From: Alphaproteobacteria bacterium
GTDB taxonomy: Bacteria; Pseudomonadota; Alphaproteobacteria; JBILKX01
Direction: 5' to 3'
Assembly (NCBI GenBank): GCA_044376435.1
Contig: JBILKX010000002.1
Span: 1 to 58,437, forward strand
DNA length: 58,437 bases
The notes beneath the pieces are model-generated. The model was given only the letters and a program-made list of their open reading frames with translations. It was not told the origin of the DNA and made no database searches. Each line of letters starts with the position of its first letter. Within the stretch, counting starts at the first letter, position 1. The translations under genes were made by a program, and so were the position numbers. Shown here one piece after another: positions 12,204 to 35,551 of the stretch.

Positions 12204-13859
12204 CTATCTTGTTTTCTGCGCTAACGCTGCTTTGACAAAGCCTAAAAATAGGGGGTGCGCAGCAAATGGTCGCGATTTAAACTCTGGGTGGTACTGCACC
12301 GCCACGAACCATGGGTGGTCCTTAAGTTCAATCACCTCTGTGAGCAGCCCATCGGGTGAGCGCCCACTAATGTACAACCCCTGTACCTCTAGGCCTGGCA
12401 GGTATTCCGGGTTTACCTCATAGCGATGGCGATGACGTTCCGTAATCGTCTTGGCCTGATAGGCTTCTGCAGCACGTGAGCCTTCTTCCAGCACACACTC
12501 ATATGCCCCCAACCGCAATGTCCCACCGAGATTACCATCAGACTGGCGTTCCTGACGCACATCACCCTGGCGCCACTCGGTCATGAGCGATATAATCGGC
12601 TCTGGCGTCGGCCCAAATTCTGTGGAGTTCGCCTGCGCAATACCCTCAACATGACGGGCATACTCGACAACTGCAAGCTGCATCCCAAGGCAGATCCCAA
12701 AGAATGGTACTTTGTGCTCGCGTGCCCAGCGGATCGCCTGAATTTTGCCTTCAATCCCACGCACGCCGAAACCACCGGGAACCAAAACACCAGCAACTCC
12801 GTCTAACGCCTTGGTATCGATTTCTTCGGCATTGATCCAGCGAATCTCCACCTGCGTATTGGTCGCAATACCGGCATGAACAAGCGCCTGAATCAATGAC
12901 TTATAGCAGTCTAAGTAGCCGACATATTTCGCCACCACTGCAATCTCGACTTTATGTTCCGGGTGCAAGCAGCGGTGCGCAATTTCACGCCACGCGGGAA
13001 CATTAGCCATGTGACTCCGCAACGCTTTAGCATTGCCATAGGCACCATGGAAAGGCAGATCGAAATACGCACAGACGCGCGCATCCAGCTCCACTTCATG
13101 AAACCACACCGGCACTTGGTAAATATTTGCGACATCTACAGCCTCGAAGACACGATCCGGACGTATATTACAAAATGTGGCGATTTTGGATTTCACATCT
13201 TCAGGAAGGGGCCGATCACAGCGGCACAGAATCATATCTGGCTGAATACCAAGACTGCTCAATTCCTTCACAGAATGTTGCGTTGGCTTGGTTTTGAGCT
13301 CGTGGGCAGAGGCAATATAGGGCACCAGCGTCAAGTGTATATATAAGACCCGCTCCCGACCAACATCGTTGCCAAACTGCCGGATTGCTTCTATAAACGG
13401 TAGCCCCTCAATGTCGCCAACCGTGCCGCCAATCTCACATAGGACGAAATCTTCATCGGTGATATCATGACTAATGAATTGCTTGATGGCATCTGTGACA
13501 TGGGGAATCACCTGGACCGTACGCCCCAGATAATCACCGCGGCGTTCCTTGGCGATCACGTGCGAGTAAATTTTCCCCGCTGTTGTTGTGTCATCACAGG
13601 TGCTCGAAACGCCGGTAAAGCGCTCGTAATGACCAAGATCTAAGTCGGTCTCGGTCCCATCATCGGTGACAAACACTTCCCCATGCTGAAAAGGACTCAT
13701 GGTCCCAGGATCAACATTGAGATACGGATCTAGCTTGCGCAGGCGCACTTTGTAGCCTTGCGCCTGCAGAAGCGCCGCCAGCGAGGCGGCGGCCAACCCT
13801 TTTCCGAGTGAGGAGAGAACCCCGCCAGTAATAAAGATATATCGGGTGGCAGCACTCAT
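12204..13859 (-). CDS. pyrG: CTP synthase
   Basis: [15 protein letters not shown] and GGTVGDIE motifs. The C-terminal glutamine amidotransferase domain carries GICLGMQ and YHPEF. Confidence 0.96.
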
Positions 13860-13868
13860 GAATTAAAA

Positions 13869-14231
13869 CTATTGAGCGGCTTTGGTAGGCGTACCTTGAT
13901 CAGCTTTCGCTGCGGTATTGTCTGGCGTTGCAGCCGGCGCGGCAGGCTCAACCATTTGCAAGGAAGCTGAGGCTTTCTCCAAAGGATCAAGAATGGTCTT
14001 AGCCTTGGTATAGCCGCCAGCCAAAATGGCCAGAACAAGGCTATTAGCGAAAAAACACGCCGCCAAAATCGCTGTCGCTCGAGTCAGCAAGTTGGCTTGA
14101 CCGCGCGCAGATACTAATCCGCCGCCGCTTGAGCCCCCCACCAGGCCACCGCCTTCGCTCCGCTGCACCAAAATCAACGCAACGATTAATAAGCAAATAA
14201 TCCCGTGTAAAACCATGAAAAACGTGTACAT
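13869..14231 (-). CDS. secG: Preprotein translocase subunit SecG
   Basis: MYTFFMVLHGIICLLIVALILVQRSEGGG..., two TM segments and a Gly-rich loop. AAGGA lies 7 nt upstream of ATG 14231. The secG-pyrG-kdsA order is conserved. Confidence 0.85.
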   Translation of the reverse strand: MYTFFMVLHGIICLLIVALILVQRSEGGGLVGGSSGGGLVSARGQANLLTRATAILAACFFANSLVLAILAGGYTKAKTILDPLEKASASLQMVEPAAPAATPDNTAAKADQGTPTKAAQ

Positions 14232-14321
14232 ACTGCATCCTTTTAATAGCAAAATTTCCGGTGATTATACCTGTTACCTCTTGGTTTTTCAACCAAAAAC
14301 TCGCTTAAGGCGTGAGAGAAC

Positions 14322-15497
14322 TTAGCCCCACATCTGGTAGACGGTACCAACGCCACGCGCCAGCAGGATTGCCCCCAGAGGCAACCCATAGGTCCACGCG
14401 CTTTGGGCGGTCGACAGCGCTGAGAATGTCGTCATTCCCCCTAAGCTCCGTAACGCCTGCACGCTCTTCACCAGCGCCAGTGCGCCCCCCAGCATCATCG
14501 ATGCCCCGGCGCCTGCTTGCACAGGACCGCCGACATATTCACCGCGTATCACACGCGTGAGCTTAGCCGACACCGACTCTGCCTTCTGTGCGGCTGGCGG
14601 CGGCGTTACCTCAGCTTGCCGAGCCTGGATCGGATGCGCGCCTAACCACCGCATCAGATTCCATCCGACAACAACCATCGCGCCATTGACGCCAAGACGC
14701 TTCACCAATTTAACCCCCGACATCGGCACTTGTTTGTAGGACCAGCACATCTTATACCCATACCGATTAGCAGTCAGTGTCTCCTCTGTTTCTGACTTTT
14801 TCTCTACGCCCATGAAGTCTACAGAAAATTGATATGTTTGGGGGCCGTCGCTGCTTTGCGCGGGCTTGACCTGTAGAAGAAGCCGTTGATTATCTCTCAG
14901 GTAGAAATAATTTTGAGCCATGTATTGGGAATAATTTCTTAACGTCTCATGATCAACGGAAGGATTCTTGTCTCTCACATAGGCTAATAATTTTTCTTTA
15001 CGATGGTTAAGACCTTCATTTGCGAAAAATTTTAAACCACTGTCTACAAGCTCTGAGCATGATTGTCGAGCAAGATTACCGAACGTCCCCTCAAGCATAC
15101 TCCACGGTTTTATACTTCCATCATTATCATAAACACACACGGCAGCTGTTGCATCTTCCCCTTGAGATTTATAGAATCCCTTCTCATCCAGTGAGCTCTT
15201 ATTACGTGCACCACTGCCACTGGACTCACCCCCGCCAACCGTATCAAGACGCCACTCTTGCTTCCACAAATAATCCCTGACAGCCTTGACCATGCCAGAA
15301 ACACCCAGCCCACATGTCGCCCCCGCAAGGCCCCGATTCAAGCCATTGATGAGCGTAAGCGGCATGGAAGCTTTTGCAGCTCCCACCCCTTGGGACAGCT
15401 TTCCAGCCTCTCCAGCTTGATCAACTTGTGGCAATGCTATGCCTTGGCAGGCTATGCCTACCCAAATACTCAGAGCAACCTTTAATCCAATACGCAT
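14322..15497 (-). CDS. Hypothetical secreted/membrane protein, tandem paralog A (constant ends, variable centre)
   Basis: 391-aa ORF with SD AAGGAAGG upstream. The signal-like N-terminus and the Gly/Ala-rich hydrophobic N- and C-terminal modules are nearly identical to 15585-16766. The central region of about 165 aa is divergent. Confidence 0.75.
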   Translation of the reverse strand: MRIGLKVALSIWVGIACQGIALPQVDQAGEAGKLSQGVGAAKASMPLTLINGLNRGLAGATCGLGVSGMVKAVRDYLWKQEWRLDTVGGGESSGSGARNKSSLDEKGFYKSQGEDATAAVCVYDNDGSIKPWSMLEGTFGNLARQSCSELVDSGLKFFANEGLNHRKEKLLAYVRDKNPSVDHETLRNYSQYMAQNYFYLRDNQRLLLQVKPAQSSDGPQTYQFSVDFMGVEKKSETEETLTANRYGYKMCWSYKQVPMSGVKLVKRLGVNGAMVVVGWNLMRWLGAHPIQARQAEVTPPPAAQKAESVSAKLTRVIRGEYVGGPVQAGAGASMMLGGALALVKSVQALRSLGGMTTFSALSTAQSAWTYGLPLGAILLARGVGTVYQMWG

Positions 15498-15584
15498 GGT
15501 ACCTTCCTTATCCTTATAATAAAACCTTATGATGATACTATAGACATTATCGCCGCCTCGTCAAGAGCGCTGTTATGAGAGAAC

Positions 15585-16766
15585 TTAGCCCCACATCTGA
15601 TAAATGGTACCAACGCCACGCGCCAGCAAGATCGCCCCCAAGGGCAGCCCATAGGTCCACGCGCTTTGGGCGGTCGCCAGCGCCGAGAATGTTGTCATCC
15701 CCTCTAAGCTCCGTAAAGCTTGCACGCTCTTCACCAGCGCCAAACTGCCCACCAGCACCATCGACGCCCCGGCGCCCGCTTGCAGAAGCCCGCCGACATA
15801 GTCACCGCGTATCACACGCGTGAGCTTAGCCGGCACCGACTCTGCCTTCTGTGCGGCTGGCGGCGGCGTTACCTCAGCTTGCCGAGCCTGGATCGGATGC
15901 GCGCCCAACCACCGCAGCAGCTTCCATCCGACGACAGCCATCGCGCCATTGACGCCAAGACGCTTCACCAATTCAATGCCCGACATCGGCACTTGTTTGT
16001 AGGACCAGAACAGATCATATCGATCCCGGCACTCTCGGCTTTTTCCGTCTGTGTCTACCGTTTTCAATCCACCGTTCCATCTTACAAAGAATTTATACGC
16101 TTGCACGCTATCACTAGACTCACTTTCAGGGGCAATACCTAACTTAAGCTCTTCTCCTGATTTGAGGTAAAAGTATTTTTGGGCCTTATTAGTATCACTC
16201 ACAAGGGGATTATTTTGAGGATGATGTTTTTCCATAAAGTAGTCGATGAATGCCTTTTTTTGAGCCTGAAAAACTTCATCCGGCTCGTCGAAAAACTGAA
16301 AACCGGCCGTTAAAAGCTCTGGACATATTCGATCAGCAAGCTCCAAGAAATCCTCTTGAAGACCACTCCATAGCTTAGAAGCATAGGAATAATAGCGGGT
16401 GCAAACAAGTAAATCACTATTCTTTGGTCCCCAGGCTTTTTCATTCTTCTCGGGAGCTACCCCATCCGCACCCGATAGAACGGTCTCAGTTGATTGACCA
16501 CCTATTCCCTGCACAAAGCGCCACTCTTGCTTCCACAGATACTCCCTAACGGCCTTGACCATGCCAGAAACACCCAACCCACACGTCGCCCCCGCAAGGC
16601 CGCGATTTAAGCCATTGATGAGAGCCAGCGGCATGGAAGCTTTTGCAGCTCCCACCCCTTGGGACAGCTTTCCAGCCTCTCCAGCTTGATCAACTTGTGG
16701 CAATGCTATGCCTTGGCAGGCTATGCCTACCCAAACACTCAGAGCAACCTTTAATCCAATACGCAT
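15585..16766 (-). CDS. Hypothetical secreted/membrane protein, tandem paralog B
   Basis: 393-aa ORF with the same upstream region and RBS as paralog A. About the first 83 and last 140 residues are conserved; the centre is divergent. Confidence 0.75.
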   Translation of the reverse strand: MRIGLKVALSVWVGIACQGIALPQVDQAGEAGKLSQGVGAAKASMPLALINGLNRGLAGATCGLGVSGMVKAVREYLWKQEWRFVQGIGGQSTETVLSGADGVAPEKNEKAWGPKNSDLLVCTRYYSYASKLWSGLQEDFLELADRICPELLTAGFQFFDEPDEVFQAQKKAFIDYFMEKHHPQNNPLVSDTNKAQKYFYLKSGEELKLGIAPESESSDSVQAYKFFVRWNGGLKTVDTDGKSRECRDRYDLFWSYKQVPMSGIELVKRLGVNGAMAVVGWKLLRWLGAHPIQARQAEVTPPPAAQKAESVPAKLTRVIRGDYVGGLLQAGAGASMVLVGSLALVKSVQALRSLEGMTTFSALATAQSAWTYGLPLGAILLARGVGTIYQMWG

Positions 16767-16951
16767 GGTACCTTCCTTATCCTAATAATAAAACCTGATG
16801 ATGATACTATAGGTATTATCGCCGCCCCGTCAAGAGCGCTGCAGTCCCCCACCCCATTTCATCTTGGTATCGATCGCCACAACTAATCCTTGCAACCTTT
16901 AGGGTTTTCGCATAGGTTAAGGAGATATAAAAACTAAAGATTTTTTGGAAA

Positions 16952-19201
16952 ATGTCGAACCCCTTAGATCGTATTGAGCTTGTTGATTTTGAATCCGCTT
17001 TAAGCCAGCGCTACCTTGCGTATGCGCTTTCAACCATTGTAGCGCGGTCGCTGCCTGATGTGCGAGATGGCCTGAAGCCTGTGCATCGACGCCTCCTGTT
17101 TGCGATGGAGCAACTTAAGCTTGATCCGAAGTCTGGCTACAAAAAATGCGCCCGCGTTGTCGGCGACGTCATCGGTAAGTTCCACCCCCATGGAGATACG
17201 GCCGTCTACGATGCCATGGTGCGCCTAGCGCAAGATTTTGCCGTACGCTACCCATTGGTCGATGGCCACGGCAACTTTGGGAACATCGACGGCGATAACG
17301 CCGCGGCCATGCGCTATACTGAGGCCAAACTAACGCTTGTAGCAAAATACCTCCTGCAGGGCCTTGATCGCAATGCGGTTGATTTTCGCGCCACTTACGA
17401 TGGTGAAGGGCAAGAGCCTGTGGTGATGCCAGCGGCTTTCCCGAATCTGCTCGCGAATGGCGCCACTGGTATTGCCGTTGGCATGGCCACCAGCATCCCC
17501 CCGCACAATGTGGCGGAGATCTGCACCGCTCTTGAGACCATTATTGAAGAAAAACTCTCCACACCCAACGCTGAGAGCGTCCAACGGCTTCTCCAAATTC
17601 TCCCCGGCCCTGACTTCCCAACCGGTGGCATTATTGTTGAGTCCCCAGAAACGATCGCGCATGCCTACATCACTGGACGCGGCAGCCTCCGCATTCGCGC
17701 GCGCTGGGAGGTTGAAAAACTGAAGAACGGTAGCTACCAAATCGTTGTCACAGAAATTCCTTATCAGGTTCTCAAAAGCCGGCTGATCGAGAAAATCGCC
17801 GAGCTGATGATCGCCAAAAAACTGCCTTTACTCGGTGATATTCACGATGAATCGACCGATACTGTGCGCCTGATTTTAGAACCAAAGACACGCCAAGTCG
17901 ATCCGGAAGTGCTGATGGAGTCGCTCTTCCGCATGACCGAACTTGAGAGTCGGTTCTCTCTGAACCTCAATGTTCTTGACGCTCGTGGCGTGCCACAGGT
18001 CATGAATCTCCATCAACTCTTGCTCGCTTACCTTGATCACCGTGTGGAGGTCTTGCAACGCGTTACACGTTTCCGTCTTGATGAGATCGCAAATCGCCTT
18101 GAGCTCTTGAACGGGTATTTAATCGCCTACCTCAATCTCGATGAGGTGATTCGCATTATCCGCGAAGAGGATGACTCCAAGGCTGAGCTCATGCAGCGCT
18201 TTAGCCTCACAGACCGCCAGGCTGAGGGCATTCTCAACATGCGCCTGCGTTCTTTACGCAAACTTGAGGAAATTGAGATCCGCCAGGAAACCCAAGCTCT
18301 CGAAAAAGAACAGCGCCAGCTGAATAAGCTGCTAGAATCTCCCAGTCACCAAATGCAGGCAATCCGCAGCGAGATTCAAGCCGTGCGGCAACATTTTGGT
18401 CAAGACACGCCTTTGGGCGCGCGACGCACCACTTTCGCCACCCCAAGTACGGCTGTGATTGTGCCAATCGAAACCTTTATCGAGCGCGAACCCGTGACCA
18501 TTGTATGCTCTGAAAAAACCTGGATCCGCGCGTTTAAGGGCCATACCGTTGAACCGATTGAGGTCAAGTACAAAGATGGTGATCAGCACCAGTTTTTCCT
18601 CCGTGCTCACACCACAGATCGACTACTCGTGTTTAGCAGCAAGGGTAAATTCTACACCATCGGGGTTGATAAACTTGCAGGCGGCAAGGGCTTTGGCGAG
18701 CCGATGCGTTTATATATTGATCTCGCCCAAGATGAGGAAATTATCACCCTCTTGACCTACGCCCCTAGTACCTCTGAAGACGCAAAATTCTTAATCGCCG
18801 CCGAGGACGGGCGCGGCTTCATGGTGCCGCAATCACAAGTGCTCGCGCAGACAAAATCCGGCAAGCAAGTCCTCACGCCACGCGACGGCACACGGGCGGC
18901 GGTATGCGTCCCTGTTGAGGGCGACCATGTTGCAGTTGTTGGGAATAATCGCAAACTCTTGGTATTTCCTCTCGCGGATGTGCCGCTGATGAATCGTGGT
19001 CAAGGAGTGATGCTGCAGAAGTATAAAGACGCTCGTCTTTCCGATATAACGACATTTACGCTTGCCAGTGGCCTATCCTGGCGCATTCTTGATCGTCAAC
19101 GCACCGAGCGCGACCTCAGTTCCTGGCTCGGGCAACGTGGCCAAGTGGGCCGCTTCCCACCTGTGGGCTTCCCGCGTACGAATAAATTTATTGTGGGTTA
19201 A
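16952..19201 (+). CDS. parC: DNA topoisomerase IV subunit A
   Basis: RSLPDVRDGLKPVHRRLL, HPHGD and AAMRYTEAKL (active-site Tyr region). The 749-aa length is typical of alphaproteobacterial ParC rather than GyrA. Confidence 0.85.
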   Translation: MSNPLDRIELVDFESALSQRYLAYALSTIVARSLPDVRDGLKPVHRRLLFAMEQLKLDPKSGYKKCARVVGDVIGKFHPHGDTAVYDAMVRLAQDFAVRYPLVDGHGNFGNIDGDNAAAMRYTEAKLTLVAKYLLQGLDRNAVDFRATYDGEGQEPVVMPAAFPNLLANGATGIAVGMATSIPPHNVAEICTALETIIEEKLSTPNAESVQRLLQILPGPDFPTGGIIVESPETIAHAYITGRGSLRIRARWEVEKLKNGSYQIVVTEIPYQVLKSRLIEKIAELMIAKKLPLLGDIHDESTDTVRLILEPKTRQVDPEVLMESLFRMTELESRFSLNLNVLDARGVPQVMNLHQLLLAYLDHRVEVLQRVTRFRLDEIANRLELLNGYLIAYLNLDEVIRIIREEDDSKAELMQRFSLTDRQAEGILNMRLRSLRKLEEIEIRQETQALEKEQRQLNKLLESPSHQMQAIRSEIQAVRQHFGQDTPLGARRTTFATPSTAVIVPIETFIEREPVTIVCSEKTWIRAFKGHTVEPIEVKYKDGDQHQFFLRAHTTDRLLVFSSKGKFYTIGVDKLAGGKGFGEPMRLYIDLAQDEEIITLLTYAPSTSEDAKFLIAAEDGRGFMVPQSQVLAQTKSGKQVLTPRDGTRAAVCVPVEGDHVAVVGNNRKLLVFPLADVPLMNRGQGVMLQKYKDARLSDITTFTLASGLSWRILDRQRTERDLSSWLGQRGQVGRFPPVGFPRTNKFIVG

Positions 19202-32079: not shown

Positions 32080-32868
32080 ATGAAAAAAAGTTTTTTCAAT
32101 TCACTCAAGGACAATTCCTTCATGCGTCAGATTTCCGTCATCGTCTTATGCGCTAGTTTATCTCTGAATCCCTTAGCCGGCTTGGCTTGGGCAGCTGATA
32201 TAATGGCGCCCACTGTAGACTCCCAAGGCACCTTAGCGGCGCCACAAAAGCTGGTAAAGGCCCCTGTTGTACCCCCACACCAAGACCCTGTAAAAAAGTC
32301 TCAGGCTACACAAACACGGTGGTTCTGGCCACTGGTCGCTGGTATCGGTACTGTCGTCGCTGTGGTCGGCGGGCTTGCTGTATGGTTTTTCTCACAAAAG
32401 TCAACCCCTAGCACAAGTCCATTGAGTGACAATCCAGGGTTAGATAACTCAAAGCTCTTGGATAAAATGCGCGCGCGTTTATCTGAACTCAACGCAAAAT
32501 ATCAGACTATGGATAGTGATTTAAAGATAATTCAACAAGTGGCTATTAACCCAGTGCAAAATCTAGAGACTCTTACCACAATAAAAGGGGGCGGGTTGAC
32601 TCTGAAGGACTATGAATTCCTAGGTGAAATCTTCGCATCACAAACTCACGAGGAGCTAAAAGCACAACTCTTGAACCTGCAACCGTATGCTATTCAATAC
32701 ATCCAGTCAACAGTAGCGCTTTTACCCTCAATAAAGGCAACATTGACTTCATTTGTTGAGCGCGCCGACACCACATCTGATCCCATATCTTGGGGAATGC
32801 TTATAAAAGAGGCTTTGGAAAAGAAGAAAAGCACACCTGCGCCGTCAGAATCTTTAATTACATCGTGA
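32080..32868 (+). CDS. Hypothetical signal-peptide/TM protein X1 (short paralog)
   Basis: 262 aa. About the first 117 residues are nearly identical to X2, including signal-like MRQISVIVLCASLSLNPLAGLAWA and the TM segment WFWPLVAGIGTVVAVVGGLAVWFF. An alternative start at ATG 32122 has AAGGA 10 nt upstream. Confidence 0.7.
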   Translation: MKKSFFNSLKDNSFMRQISVIVLCASLSLNPLAGLAWAADIMAPTVDSQGTLAAPQKLVKAPVVPPHQDPVKKSQATQTRWFWPLVAGIGTVVAVVGGLAVWFFSQKSTPSTSPLSDNPGLDNSKLLDKMRARLSELNAKYQTMDSDLKIIQQVAINPVQNLETLTTIKGGGLTLKDYEFLGEIFASQTHEELKAQLLNLQPYAIQYIQSTVALLPSIKATLTSFVERADTTSDPISWGMLIKEALEKKKSTPAPSESLITS

Positions 32869-32937
32869 AAAGGTAGAATTTTTCTGACTTACACCGCTTA
32901 GTGTGACAAAACGCACTAAAGGTATAGCTTAAACGAC

Positions 32938-33037
32938 CATAGTGCACAGCCGCTTTGAGAAACAAGATCGGCGCCGACCAAAACCAGGGCAGCTCATGGT
33001 TTAAGACCCAATGATAATGTTGGTCTATGCAACTGGT
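32938..33037 (-). pseudogene. Fragment of the GT2 glycosyltransferase gene 3' region (copy of 35781-35903)
   Basis: CCATAGTGCAC.GCCGC.TTGAGAAACAA.ATCGGCGCCGACCAAAACCAG.GCAGCTCATGGTTTAAGACCCAATGATAAT...GGTCTATGCA.CTGG matches the intact gene, with a deletion of about 24 bp. Confidence 0.8.
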
Positions 33038-33057
33038 GGGGTATCATTACTCATCCA

Positions 33058-33116
33058 GCGCTGGCTTGGATAGCTCTATCCCCTATATTGATGTTGTGCA
33101 TTTTCAGTTAACGCGA
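33058..33116 (+). pseudogene. Fragment of the cfa 3' end (copy of about 31923-31974)
   Basis: CGCTGGCTT ... TATTGATGTTGTGCATTTTCAGTTAACGCGA reproduces the last codons of cfa without its stop. The duplicated intergenic region follows. Confidence 0.8.
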
Positions 33117-33167
33117 CAGCCGGCGACCAAAGGCAACGCAGCATTGCGTGATGATTGCGTTTTCTTA

Positions 33168-33195
33168 TTGACAATTCTCCGTTGATTCCTATAGC
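33168..33195 (+). promoter_or_regulatory. Candidate promoter of duplicated gene X2
   Basis: TTGACA (33168-33173), 16-nt spacer, TATAGC (33190-33195). Paralogous to 32026-32053. Confidence 0.35.
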
Positions 33196-33220
33196 ATTTA
33201 GTGTTTCGTTACGTTATTTA

Positions 33221-35551
33221 ATGAACGAAAATTTTTTCAATTCACTCAAGGACAATTCCTTCATGCGTCAGATTTCCGCCATCGTCTTATGCGCTAGTTT
33301 ATCTCTGAATCCCTTAGCCGGCTTGGCTTGGGCAGCTGATATAATGGCGCCCACTGTAGACGCCCAAGGCACCTTAGCGGCGCCACAGAAGCTGGCAAAG
33401 ACCCAGGTTGTACCCCCACACCAAGACCCTGCAAAAAACTCTCAGGCTACACAAACACGGTGGTTCTGGCCACTGGTCGCTGGTATCGGTACTGTCGTCG
33501 CTGTGGTCGGCGGGCTTGCTGTATGGTTTTTCTCACAAAAGTCAACCCCTAGCACAAATCCATTGAGTGAAAAGTCAGACTTCGACCCCATTCCATTGGG
33601 TGAAAAGCCAGAATTCGACCCCATTCCATTGGGTGAAGAGCCAGGTTCTAGTGTTTCACACGCTTTCGACAACGGCACCCGCAATCCACAACCATACCCA
33701 CTAAATCCAAACCAGGATGACGTTCCCACCAAAGAGACCTTAGGCGACAATCGTGACCAACGGTTCACGCTTCATGATGACATACTGACAGAGCAGGCCC
33801 CATTTCCTGAACTTAAAAACCACAGCACTCAAGCGACCGGAACGCCAACAACACCAACGCCAGAGACGGTAGTAACAGAACAGTCACTCACACCTGTACC
33901 GGCAAAGACGGAGGAAAAGATCTCCATAAACGAAGAGACAAAGCCGCAAGGATCAAAGTTGCTTAGCTTAAAGGACCTTCACATTGTGAGTCACCAATTG
34001 AGAAACGCATCTATCCTAGAAGAGCTTTATTTGAAAAAGGAACATCTAGTAGAAACAGAAAATCCTAACGCTATTAAAGAGGAACTCAAAACCCACACGC
34101 ATCAGAACGGCCAGGAGTTTATCAATCATGACAGAACATTATTTCACTATCTTGCGCTCGCGAACGAGGTACATAAATATTCCAAGGTATTTGAGAAAGC
34201 CACACTAAAACTAAACCAGGACAAACTCTATCAGGGTCTAATCAAGTCGGCAGCTTATCTGAGAGATAACGTGCACACGGGGTTAGGTGGCAATCCTGAA
34301 CATAAAGACATGTTATCCAAGATTCACGATCACTTGGTGGAGGAGGAGAAGCAATGTCTTCAAGATCCAAAACACAGTATTAAATATCCCATAGAGCCCT
34401 CGACACCAGGGCCAGAGATGGCAGTAAAGACGCCAATAGTACCACCACAGCCGACCAAGATAGAGGCACTCGAGTTAACTCAAAATGAAGAGACAAAGCT
34501 ACAAGCATCAAAACTGCTTAGCTTACCGGACCTTATCCCTCTTAGTCAGAAATTGGAAACATTATCTTGGGAAAGAAAGCTTTGTTTGAAAAAAGATTCT
34601 GACGCTGTTCTTGATCAACGAACAGCGCCCATGAAAGATAATCCGGAAGCCAAGAAATTTAAGAGGTACGAATTGAACTTATTTCTATATCTTGCAAAGG
34701 CGAGCGATGCAGATCGTCATTCCAAGTTTTTTGAGACCGGAAAACAAGCACTACATGAGCAGGGAATGTACCCGGAGCTCATCACGGCCGCAGCTTATCT
34801 GAGAGATAACGTTAACACCAACACTGAATTAGGTGGCGATCCTGAACATAAAGACATGTTATCCAAGATTCACGATCACTTGGTGGAGGAGAAGAAGCAA
34901 TTTCTTCAAGATCCAAAACACAGTATTAAATATCCCATAGAGCCCTCGACACCAGGGCCAGAGATGGCAGTAAAGACGCCAATAGTACCACCACAGCCGA
35001 CCAAGATAGAGGCACTCGAGTTAACTCAAAAGGAAGAGACAAAGCCGCAAGCCGAAAAACTACTTAGCTTAAATGAACTTATTAATGTTACTAAGGCATT
35101 GAAAGAGTTATCTAATAAACCTTTATCTTCTGTAGAAAAGCTTTATTTGAAAAAGGACGTTCTTCAAGCGTCGCCCGACGATTCTCAGGCTATTCGCACT
35201 GAATTACTCAATCACATTTATAATACTGATGAAGGCAAAATTTTTACTTCTCATAAGTTGATATTATATAAATATCTTGTAAGGGCGAGCGTTGTAGGTG
35301 ATGATCCCGAGTTTTTTGAGACCAGAAAACGAGAACTATATAAGAAGCCAGGCTACGAAGCTCTAATCAACGCCGCAGCTCATCTGAGAGATAACATTCA
35401 CACAGGGGTAGGAGGTAGCGATCCTAAATATAAAGACATGTTATCCAAGATTCACGATCACTTGGTGGAGGAGGAGAAGATACTTCTCAATTCTAAAGAG
35501 CTCACGACACCGGCGCCAGAGCTAAAGACAGAAGTACCCGTAAAGACATAG
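33221..35551 (+). CDS. Hypothetical signal-peptide/TM protein X2 (long paralog with three repeats of about 185 aa)
   Basis: The start is taken at ATG 33221 by analogy with X1; the track uses TTG 33155, and 33263 is an alternative. It shares its N-terminal module with X1, then has a Pro/Thr-rich linker and three large repeats, each ending in AAYLRDN...PEHKDMLSKIHDHLVEE. Confidence 0.72.
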   Translation: MNENFFNSLKDNSFMRQISAIVLCASLSLNPLAGLAWAADIMAPTVDAQGTLAAPQKLAKTQVVPPHQDPAKNSQATQTRWFWPLVAGIGTVVAVVGGLAVWFFSQKSTPSTNPLSEKSDFDPIPLGEKPEFDPIPLGEEPGSSVSHAFDNGTRNPQPYPLNPNQDDVPTKETLGDNRDQRFTLHDDILTEQAPFPELKNHSTQATGTPTTPTPETVVTEQSLTPVPAKTEEKISINEETKPQGSKLLSLKDLHIVSHQLRNASILEELYLKKEHLVETENPNAIKEELKTHTHQNGQEFINHDRTLFHYLALANEVHKYSKVFEKATLKLNQDKLYQGLIKSAAYLRDNVHTGLGGNPEHKDMLSKIHDHLVEEEKQCLQDPKHSIKYPIEPSTPGPEMAVKTPIVPPQPTKIEALELTQNEETKLQASKLLSLPDLIPLSQKLETLSWERKLCLKKDSDAVLDQRTAPMKDNPEAKKFKRYELNLFLYLAKASDADRHSKFFETGKQALHEQGMYPELITAAAYLRDNVNTNTELGGDPEHKDMLSKIHDHLVEEKKQFLQDPKHSIKYPIEPSTPGPEMAVKTPIVPPQPTKIEALELTQKEETKPQAEKLLSLNELINVTKALKELSNKPLSSVEKLYLKKDVLQASPDDSQAIRTELLNHIYNTDEGKIFTSHKLILYKYLVRASVVGDDPEFFETRKRELYKKPGYEALINAAAHLRDNIHTGVGGSDPKYKDMLSKIHDHLVEEEKILLNSKELTTPAPELKTEVPVKT
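33902..35548 (+). repeat. Three tandem coding repeats (about 546-549 bp each) inside X2
   Basis: Repeat landmarks NEETKPQGSKLLSL, NEETKLQASKLLSL and KEETKPQAEKLLSL sit at residues 259, 444 and 626 of the track ORF. Blocks 34295-34498 and 34841-35044 are nearly identical. Confidence 0.85.

Follow-up and report, generated by a model that had tools for sequence, protein, structure and literature searches.

A tandem pair of orphan genes with near-identical ends and a diverged centre in an uncultured alphaproteobacterium

Results and Discussion

Contig JBILKX010000002.1 of the alphaproteobacterial assembly GCA_044376435.1 carries, within the stretch of 58,437 nt analysed here (the window; all coordinates are positions in it), two adjacent and co-oriented genes without a recognised family, which we designated A and B. 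Both are read on the minus strand. Their ends are nearly identical at the DNA level and enclose a centre that can hardly be aligned as DNA, and this mosaic requires recombination between the two copies. We consider it probable, although by no means certain, that a tandem duplication was followed by homogenisation of the ends through recombination, around a centre that continued to diverge.

Two complete units in head-to-tail order

Gene B (open reading frame (ORF) call at 15585-16766, minus strand) encodes a protein of 393 aa with a signal-peptide-like N-terminus, an N-module, a central domain and a C-module. Gene A (ORF call at 14322-15497, minus strand) encodes a paralogue of 391 aa that shares about 63% of its amino acids with B over the entire length. 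Each gene is part of a repeat unit of about 1.26 kb, delimited by the limits of homology and by the repeat spacing: the upstream copy, unit B, covers 15576-16841 (minus strand) and contains a promoter-like site, a ribosome-binding site (RBS), ORF B and about 10 nt past the stop codon, and the downstream copy, unit A, covers 14313-15572 (minus strand). A repeat search of the window retrieved two families of 300-nt direct repeats with a spacing of 1269 and 1263 nt. The gap between the units comprises 3 nt (15573-15575), and this close spacing identifies the arrangement as a true head-to-tail duplication, in agreement with the first-pass annotation, which had been made by reading the sequence and had described a tandem pair of this unit size.

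The two units are built in the same way. Each begins 8 nt upstream of its own promoter-like site, TTGACG-16 nt-TATAGT, which agrees with 10 of 12 consensus positions and is located at 16806-16833 for B and, with the same hexamers and spacing, at 15537-15564 for A (both on the minus strand; both consensus matches only). In both genes AAGGAAGG is found 4 nt before the ATG, and both units end about 10 nt past the stop codon. As each unit spans the region from the promoter-like site through the stop codon, it was a complete expression unit that was copied.

Near-identical ends around a homologous but diverged centre

Pairwise MAFFT alignments of the DNA of each block, together with a global alignment of both units, divide the pair into three parts. 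The 5' conserved block (15250-15572 in A, 16519-16841 in B; minus strand), comprising 75 nt upstream of the gene and codons 1-83, is identical in 306 of 323 positions (94.7%). The 3' conserved block (14312-14748 in A, 15575-16011 in B; minus strand), comprising the last 140 codons and about 10 nt, is identical in 399 of 437 positions (91.3%). Between them, the divergent centres (14749-15249 in A, about 168 codons; 16012-16518 in B, about 170 codons; minus strand) match in about 46% of 513 columns, which is near the level that forced alignment yields for weakly related DNA. Divergence is thus not uniform along the copies, as had been read by eye. As proteins, the two centres share 31% identity over 122 aa (BLASTP, E=4e-15); this identity and their near-equal length show that they are homologous and not unrelated inserts, so that the cassette replacement also considered in the first-pass annotation is not supported if it is taken to mean unrelated sequence. 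The borders of the centre are abrupt: 19 identical bases close the 5' block, and 30 identical bases open the 3' block after one mismatch.

The ends differ in themselves, too. A tract of 157 nt in the 5' block (15358-15514 in A, 16627-16783 in B; minus strand), extending from 17 nt upstream of the ATG to codon 46, is a candidate recent conversion tract. Some 150 bp around the start codon had initially been taken as identical; the extent was right, but the tract contains one mismatch and its longest perfect run is 109 nt. It is followed by 11 mismatches in 108 nt of the 5' block. The non-coding 75 nt upstream of A and B are 93% identical, and the 3' block contains a perfect run of 72 nt (14571-14642 in A, 15834-15905 in B; minus strand).

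The differences between the copies were classified by hand count. Codons 1-83 contain 13 of them, 10 synonymous and 3 nonsynonymous (I11V, T48A, D75E), and all synonymous changes fall in codons 46-83, with none in codons 1-45. In the 140 codons of the 3' block, 36 coding differences were counted, of which 20 are synonymous and 16 nonsynonymous (15 amino-acid changes). The ratio of nonsynonymous to synonymous change (dN/dS), estimated roughly from these raw difference counts, is about 0.1 for the N block and about 0.25 for the C block. Whereas 4-11% of the residues are replaced between A and B in the ends, about 70% are replaced in the centre. At residues that are identical in both proteins, degenerate codons differ in 17 of 37 cases in the centre (46%) versus 27 of 189 in the ends (14%; chi-square about 20; hand count); synonymous change in the centre is therefore high, but not fully saturated.

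This approximately threefold excess of synonymous codon differences means that constraint at the protein level is insufficient to account for the mosaic and that the ends and the centre have different histories. Together with the abrupt borders, it supports the recombination part of the earlier proposal. At least three levels of divergence can be distinguished (the 157-nt tract, the remaining parts of the ends with 8-10%, and the centre), and repeated events fit them better than a single one. Most likely, the ends have been homogenised by repeated gene conversion or unequal crossing-over. The centre itself indicates relaxed or diversifying selection, between which we do not choose.

The pair in other samples

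In the Joint Genome Institute (JGI) metagenome sample 3300044637, the genes are found in the order pyrG-secG-A-B-parC on a contig of 18.7 kb, whose identity to the window is 100% over 2761 nt. A contig of 1380 nt from sample 3300044618 extends from B through the spacer into the A-specific start of A and differs by one single-nucleotide polymorphism (SNP). Since independent contigs reproduce the arrangement, it is not an artefact of one assembly. The only polymorphism between samples seen across the pair is a G-to-T change that replaces D with Y in the LQEDF motif of the B centre (L004:374, window position ~16351).

The 90% clusters of the A and B proteins also contain a protein (P0007) encoded on a contig of 1051 nt (L086) from sample 3300042522. 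Its sequence is exactly that of A across the A centre and over the initial third of the 3' block. The change to B-type falls within the perfect run of 72 nt, and from there on the contig is exactly B, across the B-A spacer and into the 5' end of A. Such a structure fits the expectation for unequal crossing-over, which would place an A/B hybrid between B and A in an array, or for a long conversion of B by A.

An orphan family with a short member

Relatives were sought among 5.8 billion protein clusters (word-indexed search) and, exhaustively with HMMER profiles, among 1.84 billion representatives, which stand for about 15 billion proteins. The former returned three clusters and the latter two representatives, and jointly they contained only A, B and one further protein, P0003. 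For these three proteins no match was found in Pfam, NCBIfam, PADLOC, PHROG or the sequences of the PDB below the curated thresholds, and for the isolated modules none at E<=10; the first-pass annotation had likewise recognised no family. Searches of GTDB representative genomes and IMG/VR retrieved no copies beyond the pair and P0003. No further ones were detected in the JGI metagenome contig collection, which is a weak negative because this collection evidently lacks the source samples, and tblastn of A and B against the whole window revealed no additional full, partial or silent copy. Nothing connects the family with phages or defence systems, as neither PHROGs nor PADLOC gave a match and no member was located on a viral contig. 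Judging from these searches, the family is an orphan that is limited to one uncultured lineage in the collections covered.

In P0003 (217 aa) the centre is missing, and the C-module follows the N-module directly. The C-module of P0003 starts at W-(S/Y)-Y-K, the same motif that opens the 3' block of A and B. The border of the indel thus coincides with the border of the 3' block, which implies that the blocks act as discrete modules that can be present or absent. The LQEDF motif found at the start of the B centre is kept in P0003, a weak hint that P0003 may have arisen by internal deletion.

The P0003 gene lies between obg and addB, in company with two further orphan genes, X1 and X2 (L001:9310-11419, European Nucleotide Archive (ENA) ERZ27272045). 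It starts 1 nt past the stop codon of X1, which suggests that the two are co-transcribed, and is followed by X2, a paralogue of X1. The X proteins (205 aa and 217 aa) have a signal peptide and several hydrophobic helices, and their genes form a mosaic as well: identity is 98% over the first 300 nt, of which 72 nt lie upstream (77 of the first 78 residues match), and 88% over a stretch of 89 nt near the 3' end, with 77% identity of the proteins overall. A test of the X family as a possible relative of A and B revealed no link (BLASTP E=0.22; no X motifs in the window). A variant of P0003, P0009, is present on a contig of 1997 nt from sample 3300059473 and falls into the same 90%-identity cluster as P0003. 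It combines the P0003 body with an X-family signal peptide (MKRIIASLILSGVLASAHAMS/CQG...), and at the junction (...AHAMS/CQG..., the slash marking the joint) two gene families that are unrelated have swapped their 5' module in frame. Taken together with the X1/X2 mosaic, this swap suggests that shuffling of 5' modules by recombination is common in this organism.

The contig with P0003 and the window probably come from one genome, because the collection contains no second ParC of this lineage, because the contig was found in one of the JGI samples that also contain the window contig (3300044637) and shares the source collections of the latter (NCBI, JGI, ENA), and because the two have an equal GC content of 0.48 and no single-copy gene in common.

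Origin of the mosaic

The course of events that we favour is as follows. A lineage-specific gene was duplicated in tandem with its own promoter. Its product would comprise a signal peptide, a small Gly/Ala-rich N-module, a middle domain of about 170 aa with alpha/beta structure, and a C-module with two hydrophobic helices. After the duplication, recombination (gene conversion and/or unequal crossing-over) would repeatedly have homogenised both the 5' part as far as codon 83, promoter included, and the 140 codons at the 3' end. Divergence of the middle domain would have become too great for it to act as a recombination substrate, and this domain would evolve under relaxed or diversifying selection. 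The outcome would be two co-oriented isoforms with the same promoter-like site, RBS and anchoring modules and with different middle domains; presumably these isoforms are co-expressed, and they may differ in function. The mosaic of X1 and X2 at the P0003 locus is of the same type and thus counts in favour of this course of events.

Several points weigh against it. Without an outgroup allele of A or B, conversion of the ends is indistinguishable from replacement of one centre. The synonymous comparison is a hand count that includes only 37 codons of the centre. The differences in the 3' block are not clearly over-dispersed (3, 5, 1, 7, 9, 6 and 5 per 60 nt), so that the evidence for repeated tracts rests on the 5' block. 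The hybrid contig L086 has a length of about 1 kb and may equally well be a chimera caused by a mis-resolved 72-nt repeat in a short-read assembly. Finally, export, membrane topology and expression are inferences, and the AlphaFold models are of low confidence, with a predicted local distance difference test (pLDDT) of 44 and 42.

Among the alternatives, replacement of the centre fares best, although we regard it as unlikely. According to it, the duplication would be fairly recent, of the age indicated by the ends (synonymous divergence, dS, about 0.15-0.2), and one copy would later have acquired a diverged form of the middle domain, derived from another strain or from a paralogue, in a single swap by homologous recombination, with the conserved ends serving as arms. 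The abruptness of the borders on both sides agrees with such an event, as does the fact that the centre is a discrete module, absent from P0003 with an identical 3' border. Furthermore, modules are exchanged in this family (the signal peptide of P0009 is that of the neighbouring gene family), and the third codon positions of the centre are poor in GC (0.39), unlike those of the C-module. However, there is no donor: the exhaustive hidden Markov model (HMM) search of 1.84 billion representatives yielded no other carrier of the centre, and no close relative of the organism has been sampled, its ParC being at most 65% identical to anything in the collection. In addition, the heterogeneity of the 5' block, with one mismatch in 157 nt followed by 11 in 108 nt, is unexplained by a single swap. 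Conversion as the process, rather than one swap, is what we infer.

A more far-reaching interpretation, which appears doubtful to us, is that the pair is part of a lineage-specific envelope protein system shuffled by recombination in a deep-branching alphaproteobacterium. In such a system the constant modules, i.e. promoter with signal peptide and anchor, would serve as recombination arms; a domain of 170 aa with a new fold could be gained, lost or swapped, A and B being the long forms and P0003 and P0009 the short ones; and unequal crossing-over would generate array or hybrid variants such as L086, resulting in a variable exposed or effector repertoire. If the middle domain is exposed and the hybrid contig is real, the pair would show in compact, natural form how an envelope protein is diversified by modules in a non-pathogenic bacterium from the environment.

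Ordinary divergence of paralogues without recombination, with ends under far stronger purifying selection than the middle, is very improbable. The low dN/dS of the ends (roughly 0.1-0.25) and the many replacements tolerated by the centre are what it would predict, but it does not account for the roughly threefold higher frequency of synonymous differences at unchanged residues of the centre (17/37 vs 27/189), nor for the conservation of the non-coding 75 nt upstream (93%), nor for the lack of any synonymous change in codons 1-45.

Equally little speaks for programmed variation, in which donor cassettes would supply one expression site (as with msp2/p44, pilE/pilS or vlsE) or a diversity-generating retroelement (DGR) would diversify an exposed domain. 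Constant ends around a variable middle are indeed the architecture of such systems, and one sample contains a possible hybrid allele (L086). Nevertheless, both copies are complete, with the same promoter-like site and RBS, and tblastn of A and B found no further full or partial copy in the 58-kb window; these same observations (a complete promoter-like site, RBS and ORF in each copy, and no silent copies in the window) leave the first-pass suggestion of a variable surface or effector system unsupported. The contigs of three samples are identical or one SNP apart, with no sign of rapid switching. The differences between the centres involve all bases and indels, unlike the adenine mutagenesis of a DGR, and the sole integrase-like gene nearby encodes a XerC/D-type recombinase and is 5 kb away. 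No reverse transcriptase was found among those ORFs of the window that were scanned, which were not all of its ORFs.

Least of all can the pair be attributed to an assembly artefact that placed two strain variants of one gene side by side: metagenome assemblies can mis-join repeats, and odd joins such as L086 do exist, but the B-to-A junction, with A- and B-specific variants on either side, was recovered in three independent samples, the outer flanks of the units differ (parC side and secG side), and a defined spacer of 3 nt joins the units.

Base composition

The GC content is 0.60-0.67 in the 3' blocks, 0.54-0.58 in the coding part of the 5' blocks and 0.36-0.45 in the centres, with a mean of 0.48 for the window. 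The early impression of an AT-rich centre between GC-rich ends is thus correct for the total GC content, part of the contrast simply reflecting the sequence rich in Gly, Ala, Pro and Arg. It does not extend to the GC content of third codon positions (GC3; hand count), which follows no simple scheme of high ends and a low centre: in A, GC3 rises from 0.38 in codons 1-45 to 0.63 in codons 46-83, falls to 0.39 in the centre and reaches 0.69 in the C-module (3' block). For comparison, the GC3 of secG is 0.53, and that of P0003 is 0.32 in the N-module and 0.57 in the C-module (hand counts). GC-biased conversion had been suggested at first as a cause of the GC-rich ends. After the GC3 counts we rejected it as the main cause, since the most recently homogenised tract lacks a high GC3 (0.38) and since the C-module is rich in GC3 even in P0003, which has no tandem partner. 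We disregarded the antisense ORFs within the 3' blocks (among them 14312-14560 and 15575-15823), taking them for a side effect of the high GC content.

Features of the proteins

The N-terminus of A and B, MRIGLKVALSIWVGIAC-QGIA-LPQVD, contains two basic residues, a hydrophobic core of 10 residues and a conserved Cys17, and by eye it looks like a Sec signal peptide. The cysteine is found in the context VGIA-C17 in A and B and IGMS-C17 in P0003; the Gly at position -3 is atypical for a lipobox. By eye, the C17 context of all three proteins may fit the loose PROSITE-style lipobox rule. Cleavage may occur at this atypical lipobox or at a signal peptidase I site at GIA (GIA/GMA follows C17), and either would serve. 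Besides the signal sequence, a single segment (about 325-346) is clearly hydrophobic in Kyte-Doolittle plots, and the last 20 residues are weaker; the helices of P0003 that match the C-terminal ones of A and B are more hydrophobic.

AlphaFold2 modelling of B with an alignment of three sequences gave a pLDDT of 44 (55-76 in the centre), and the centre modelled alone gave 42. According to these models, the N- and C-modules may be helical and the centre may have alpha/beta structure. A Foldseek search against the PDB returned no match at E<0.05; the best hits (volvatoxin/Cyt toxin, SecB, START-like) had a TM-score of about 0.2 and were treated as noise. The centre of A and B may have a new fold. 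We commit ourselves only to the view that A and B are probably exported, membrane-associated proteins whose middle domain is variable. With the stretch rich in Lys and Arg that follows the first Gly-rich hydrophobic helix, the centre could also lie in the cytoplasm.

Comparison with known systems

RecA-dependent intrachromosomal conversion keeps the duplicated tufA and tufB genes more similar than the age of their duplication predicts. There the whole gene is homogenised, whereas in A and B the central 500 bp escape and now encode sequences with about 31% amino-acid identity. In Anaplasma msp2/p44, Neisseria pilE/pilS and Borrelia vlsE, conserved flanks anchor recombination around a variable middle, and one expressed site is accompanied by many promoterless donors. 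A and B differ from these cassette systems in being two complete genes with their own promoter-like sites, and no donors were found in the window.

The babA, babB and babC genes of Helicobacter pylori undergo intragenomic gene conversion in their 5' and 3' homology regions, which leads to chimeric genes (PMC4552749, PMC3444412). They resemble A and B in block architecture and in the proposed process: in our pair, near-identical ends likewise surround a divergent homologous middle, and synonymous divergence is lower in the ends (hand count). However, Bab proteins are outer-membrane beta-barrel adhesins of the Hop family that are encoded at dispersed loci and subject to phase variation through CT repeats, whereas the copies of A and B are adjacent, have no simple-sequence switch and match no outer-membrane protein family.

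The first-pass annotation had described the Gly/Ala-rich modules as being of glycine-zipper type. Two preprints (bioRxiv 10.64898/2026.06.08.730324, 10.64898/2025.12.22.696046) assign SlyB and YfgH to the glycine-zipper lipoproteins, which they place in the outer membrane. Like SlyB/Pcp and YfgH, A and B have a putative N-terminal signal sequence that ends in a conserved cysteine (C17) after small residues, as well as Gly/Ala-rich hydrophobic helices. In contrast to them, A and B match no glycine-zipper HMM of Pfam at E<=10, the small-xxx-small (GxxxG) spacing is unconserved among A, B and P0003, and the lipobox is atypical (Gly at -3). The glycine-zipper designation is not supported, and the resemblance is loose at most.

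Concerted evolution of the ends of paralogues around a diverging middle is a textbook process; what is new here is the family. At present, the pair represents a clean and well-documented case of paralogues shaped by recombination, mainly of value for the annotation of this metagenome-assembled genome.

Organism and genomic surroundings

The ParC encoded in the window is at most 65% identical to anything among the 5.8 billion protein clusters or the GTDB representative genomes, and its best matches are from uncultured Alphaproteobacteria, Kiloniellaceae, Dongia, Pelagibius and Micavibrio. On this evidence, the source is a very isolated, uncultured alphaproteobacterial lineage.

Gene B is neighboured by parC (16952-19201, plus strand) and gene A by secG (13869-14252, minus strand), which adjoins pyrG (12204-13859, minus strand). 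The pair had initially been regarded as inserted between conserved secG and parC. This adjacency proved not to be conserved, as neither secG nor pyrG is present within 6 kb of parC in any of the 50 closest alphaproteobacterial ParC loci (L005-L054), and there is accordingly no empty site for comparison and no basis for claiming an insertion. Directly downstream of A, at 14264-14292, secG has its own strong promoter-like site (TTGAAA-17-TATAAT, 11 of 12 positions), and no terminator-like site was seen between A and secG.

Other parts of the window also contain orphan genes. Two ORFs of 262 and 798 aa at 32080-35551 have no Pfam match above threshold, and both show sub-threshold similarity to Trp_oprn_chp, a transmembrane family. 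Three consecutive genes at 2320-4820 encode proteins of 281, 250 and 282 aa with signal-peptide-like starts and without a Pfam match. The first and the third are 27% identical and share the motifs KLPxEKQRLW and APxVLEFVQxN, which points to another locally duplicated, lineage-specific family. At 5062-6828, a leucine-rich-repeat (LRR) protein of 588 aa is encoded, with weak matches to Pfam LRR_4, LRR_8 and LRR_14; LRR proteins are frequent in bacteria that interact with eukaryotic hosts.

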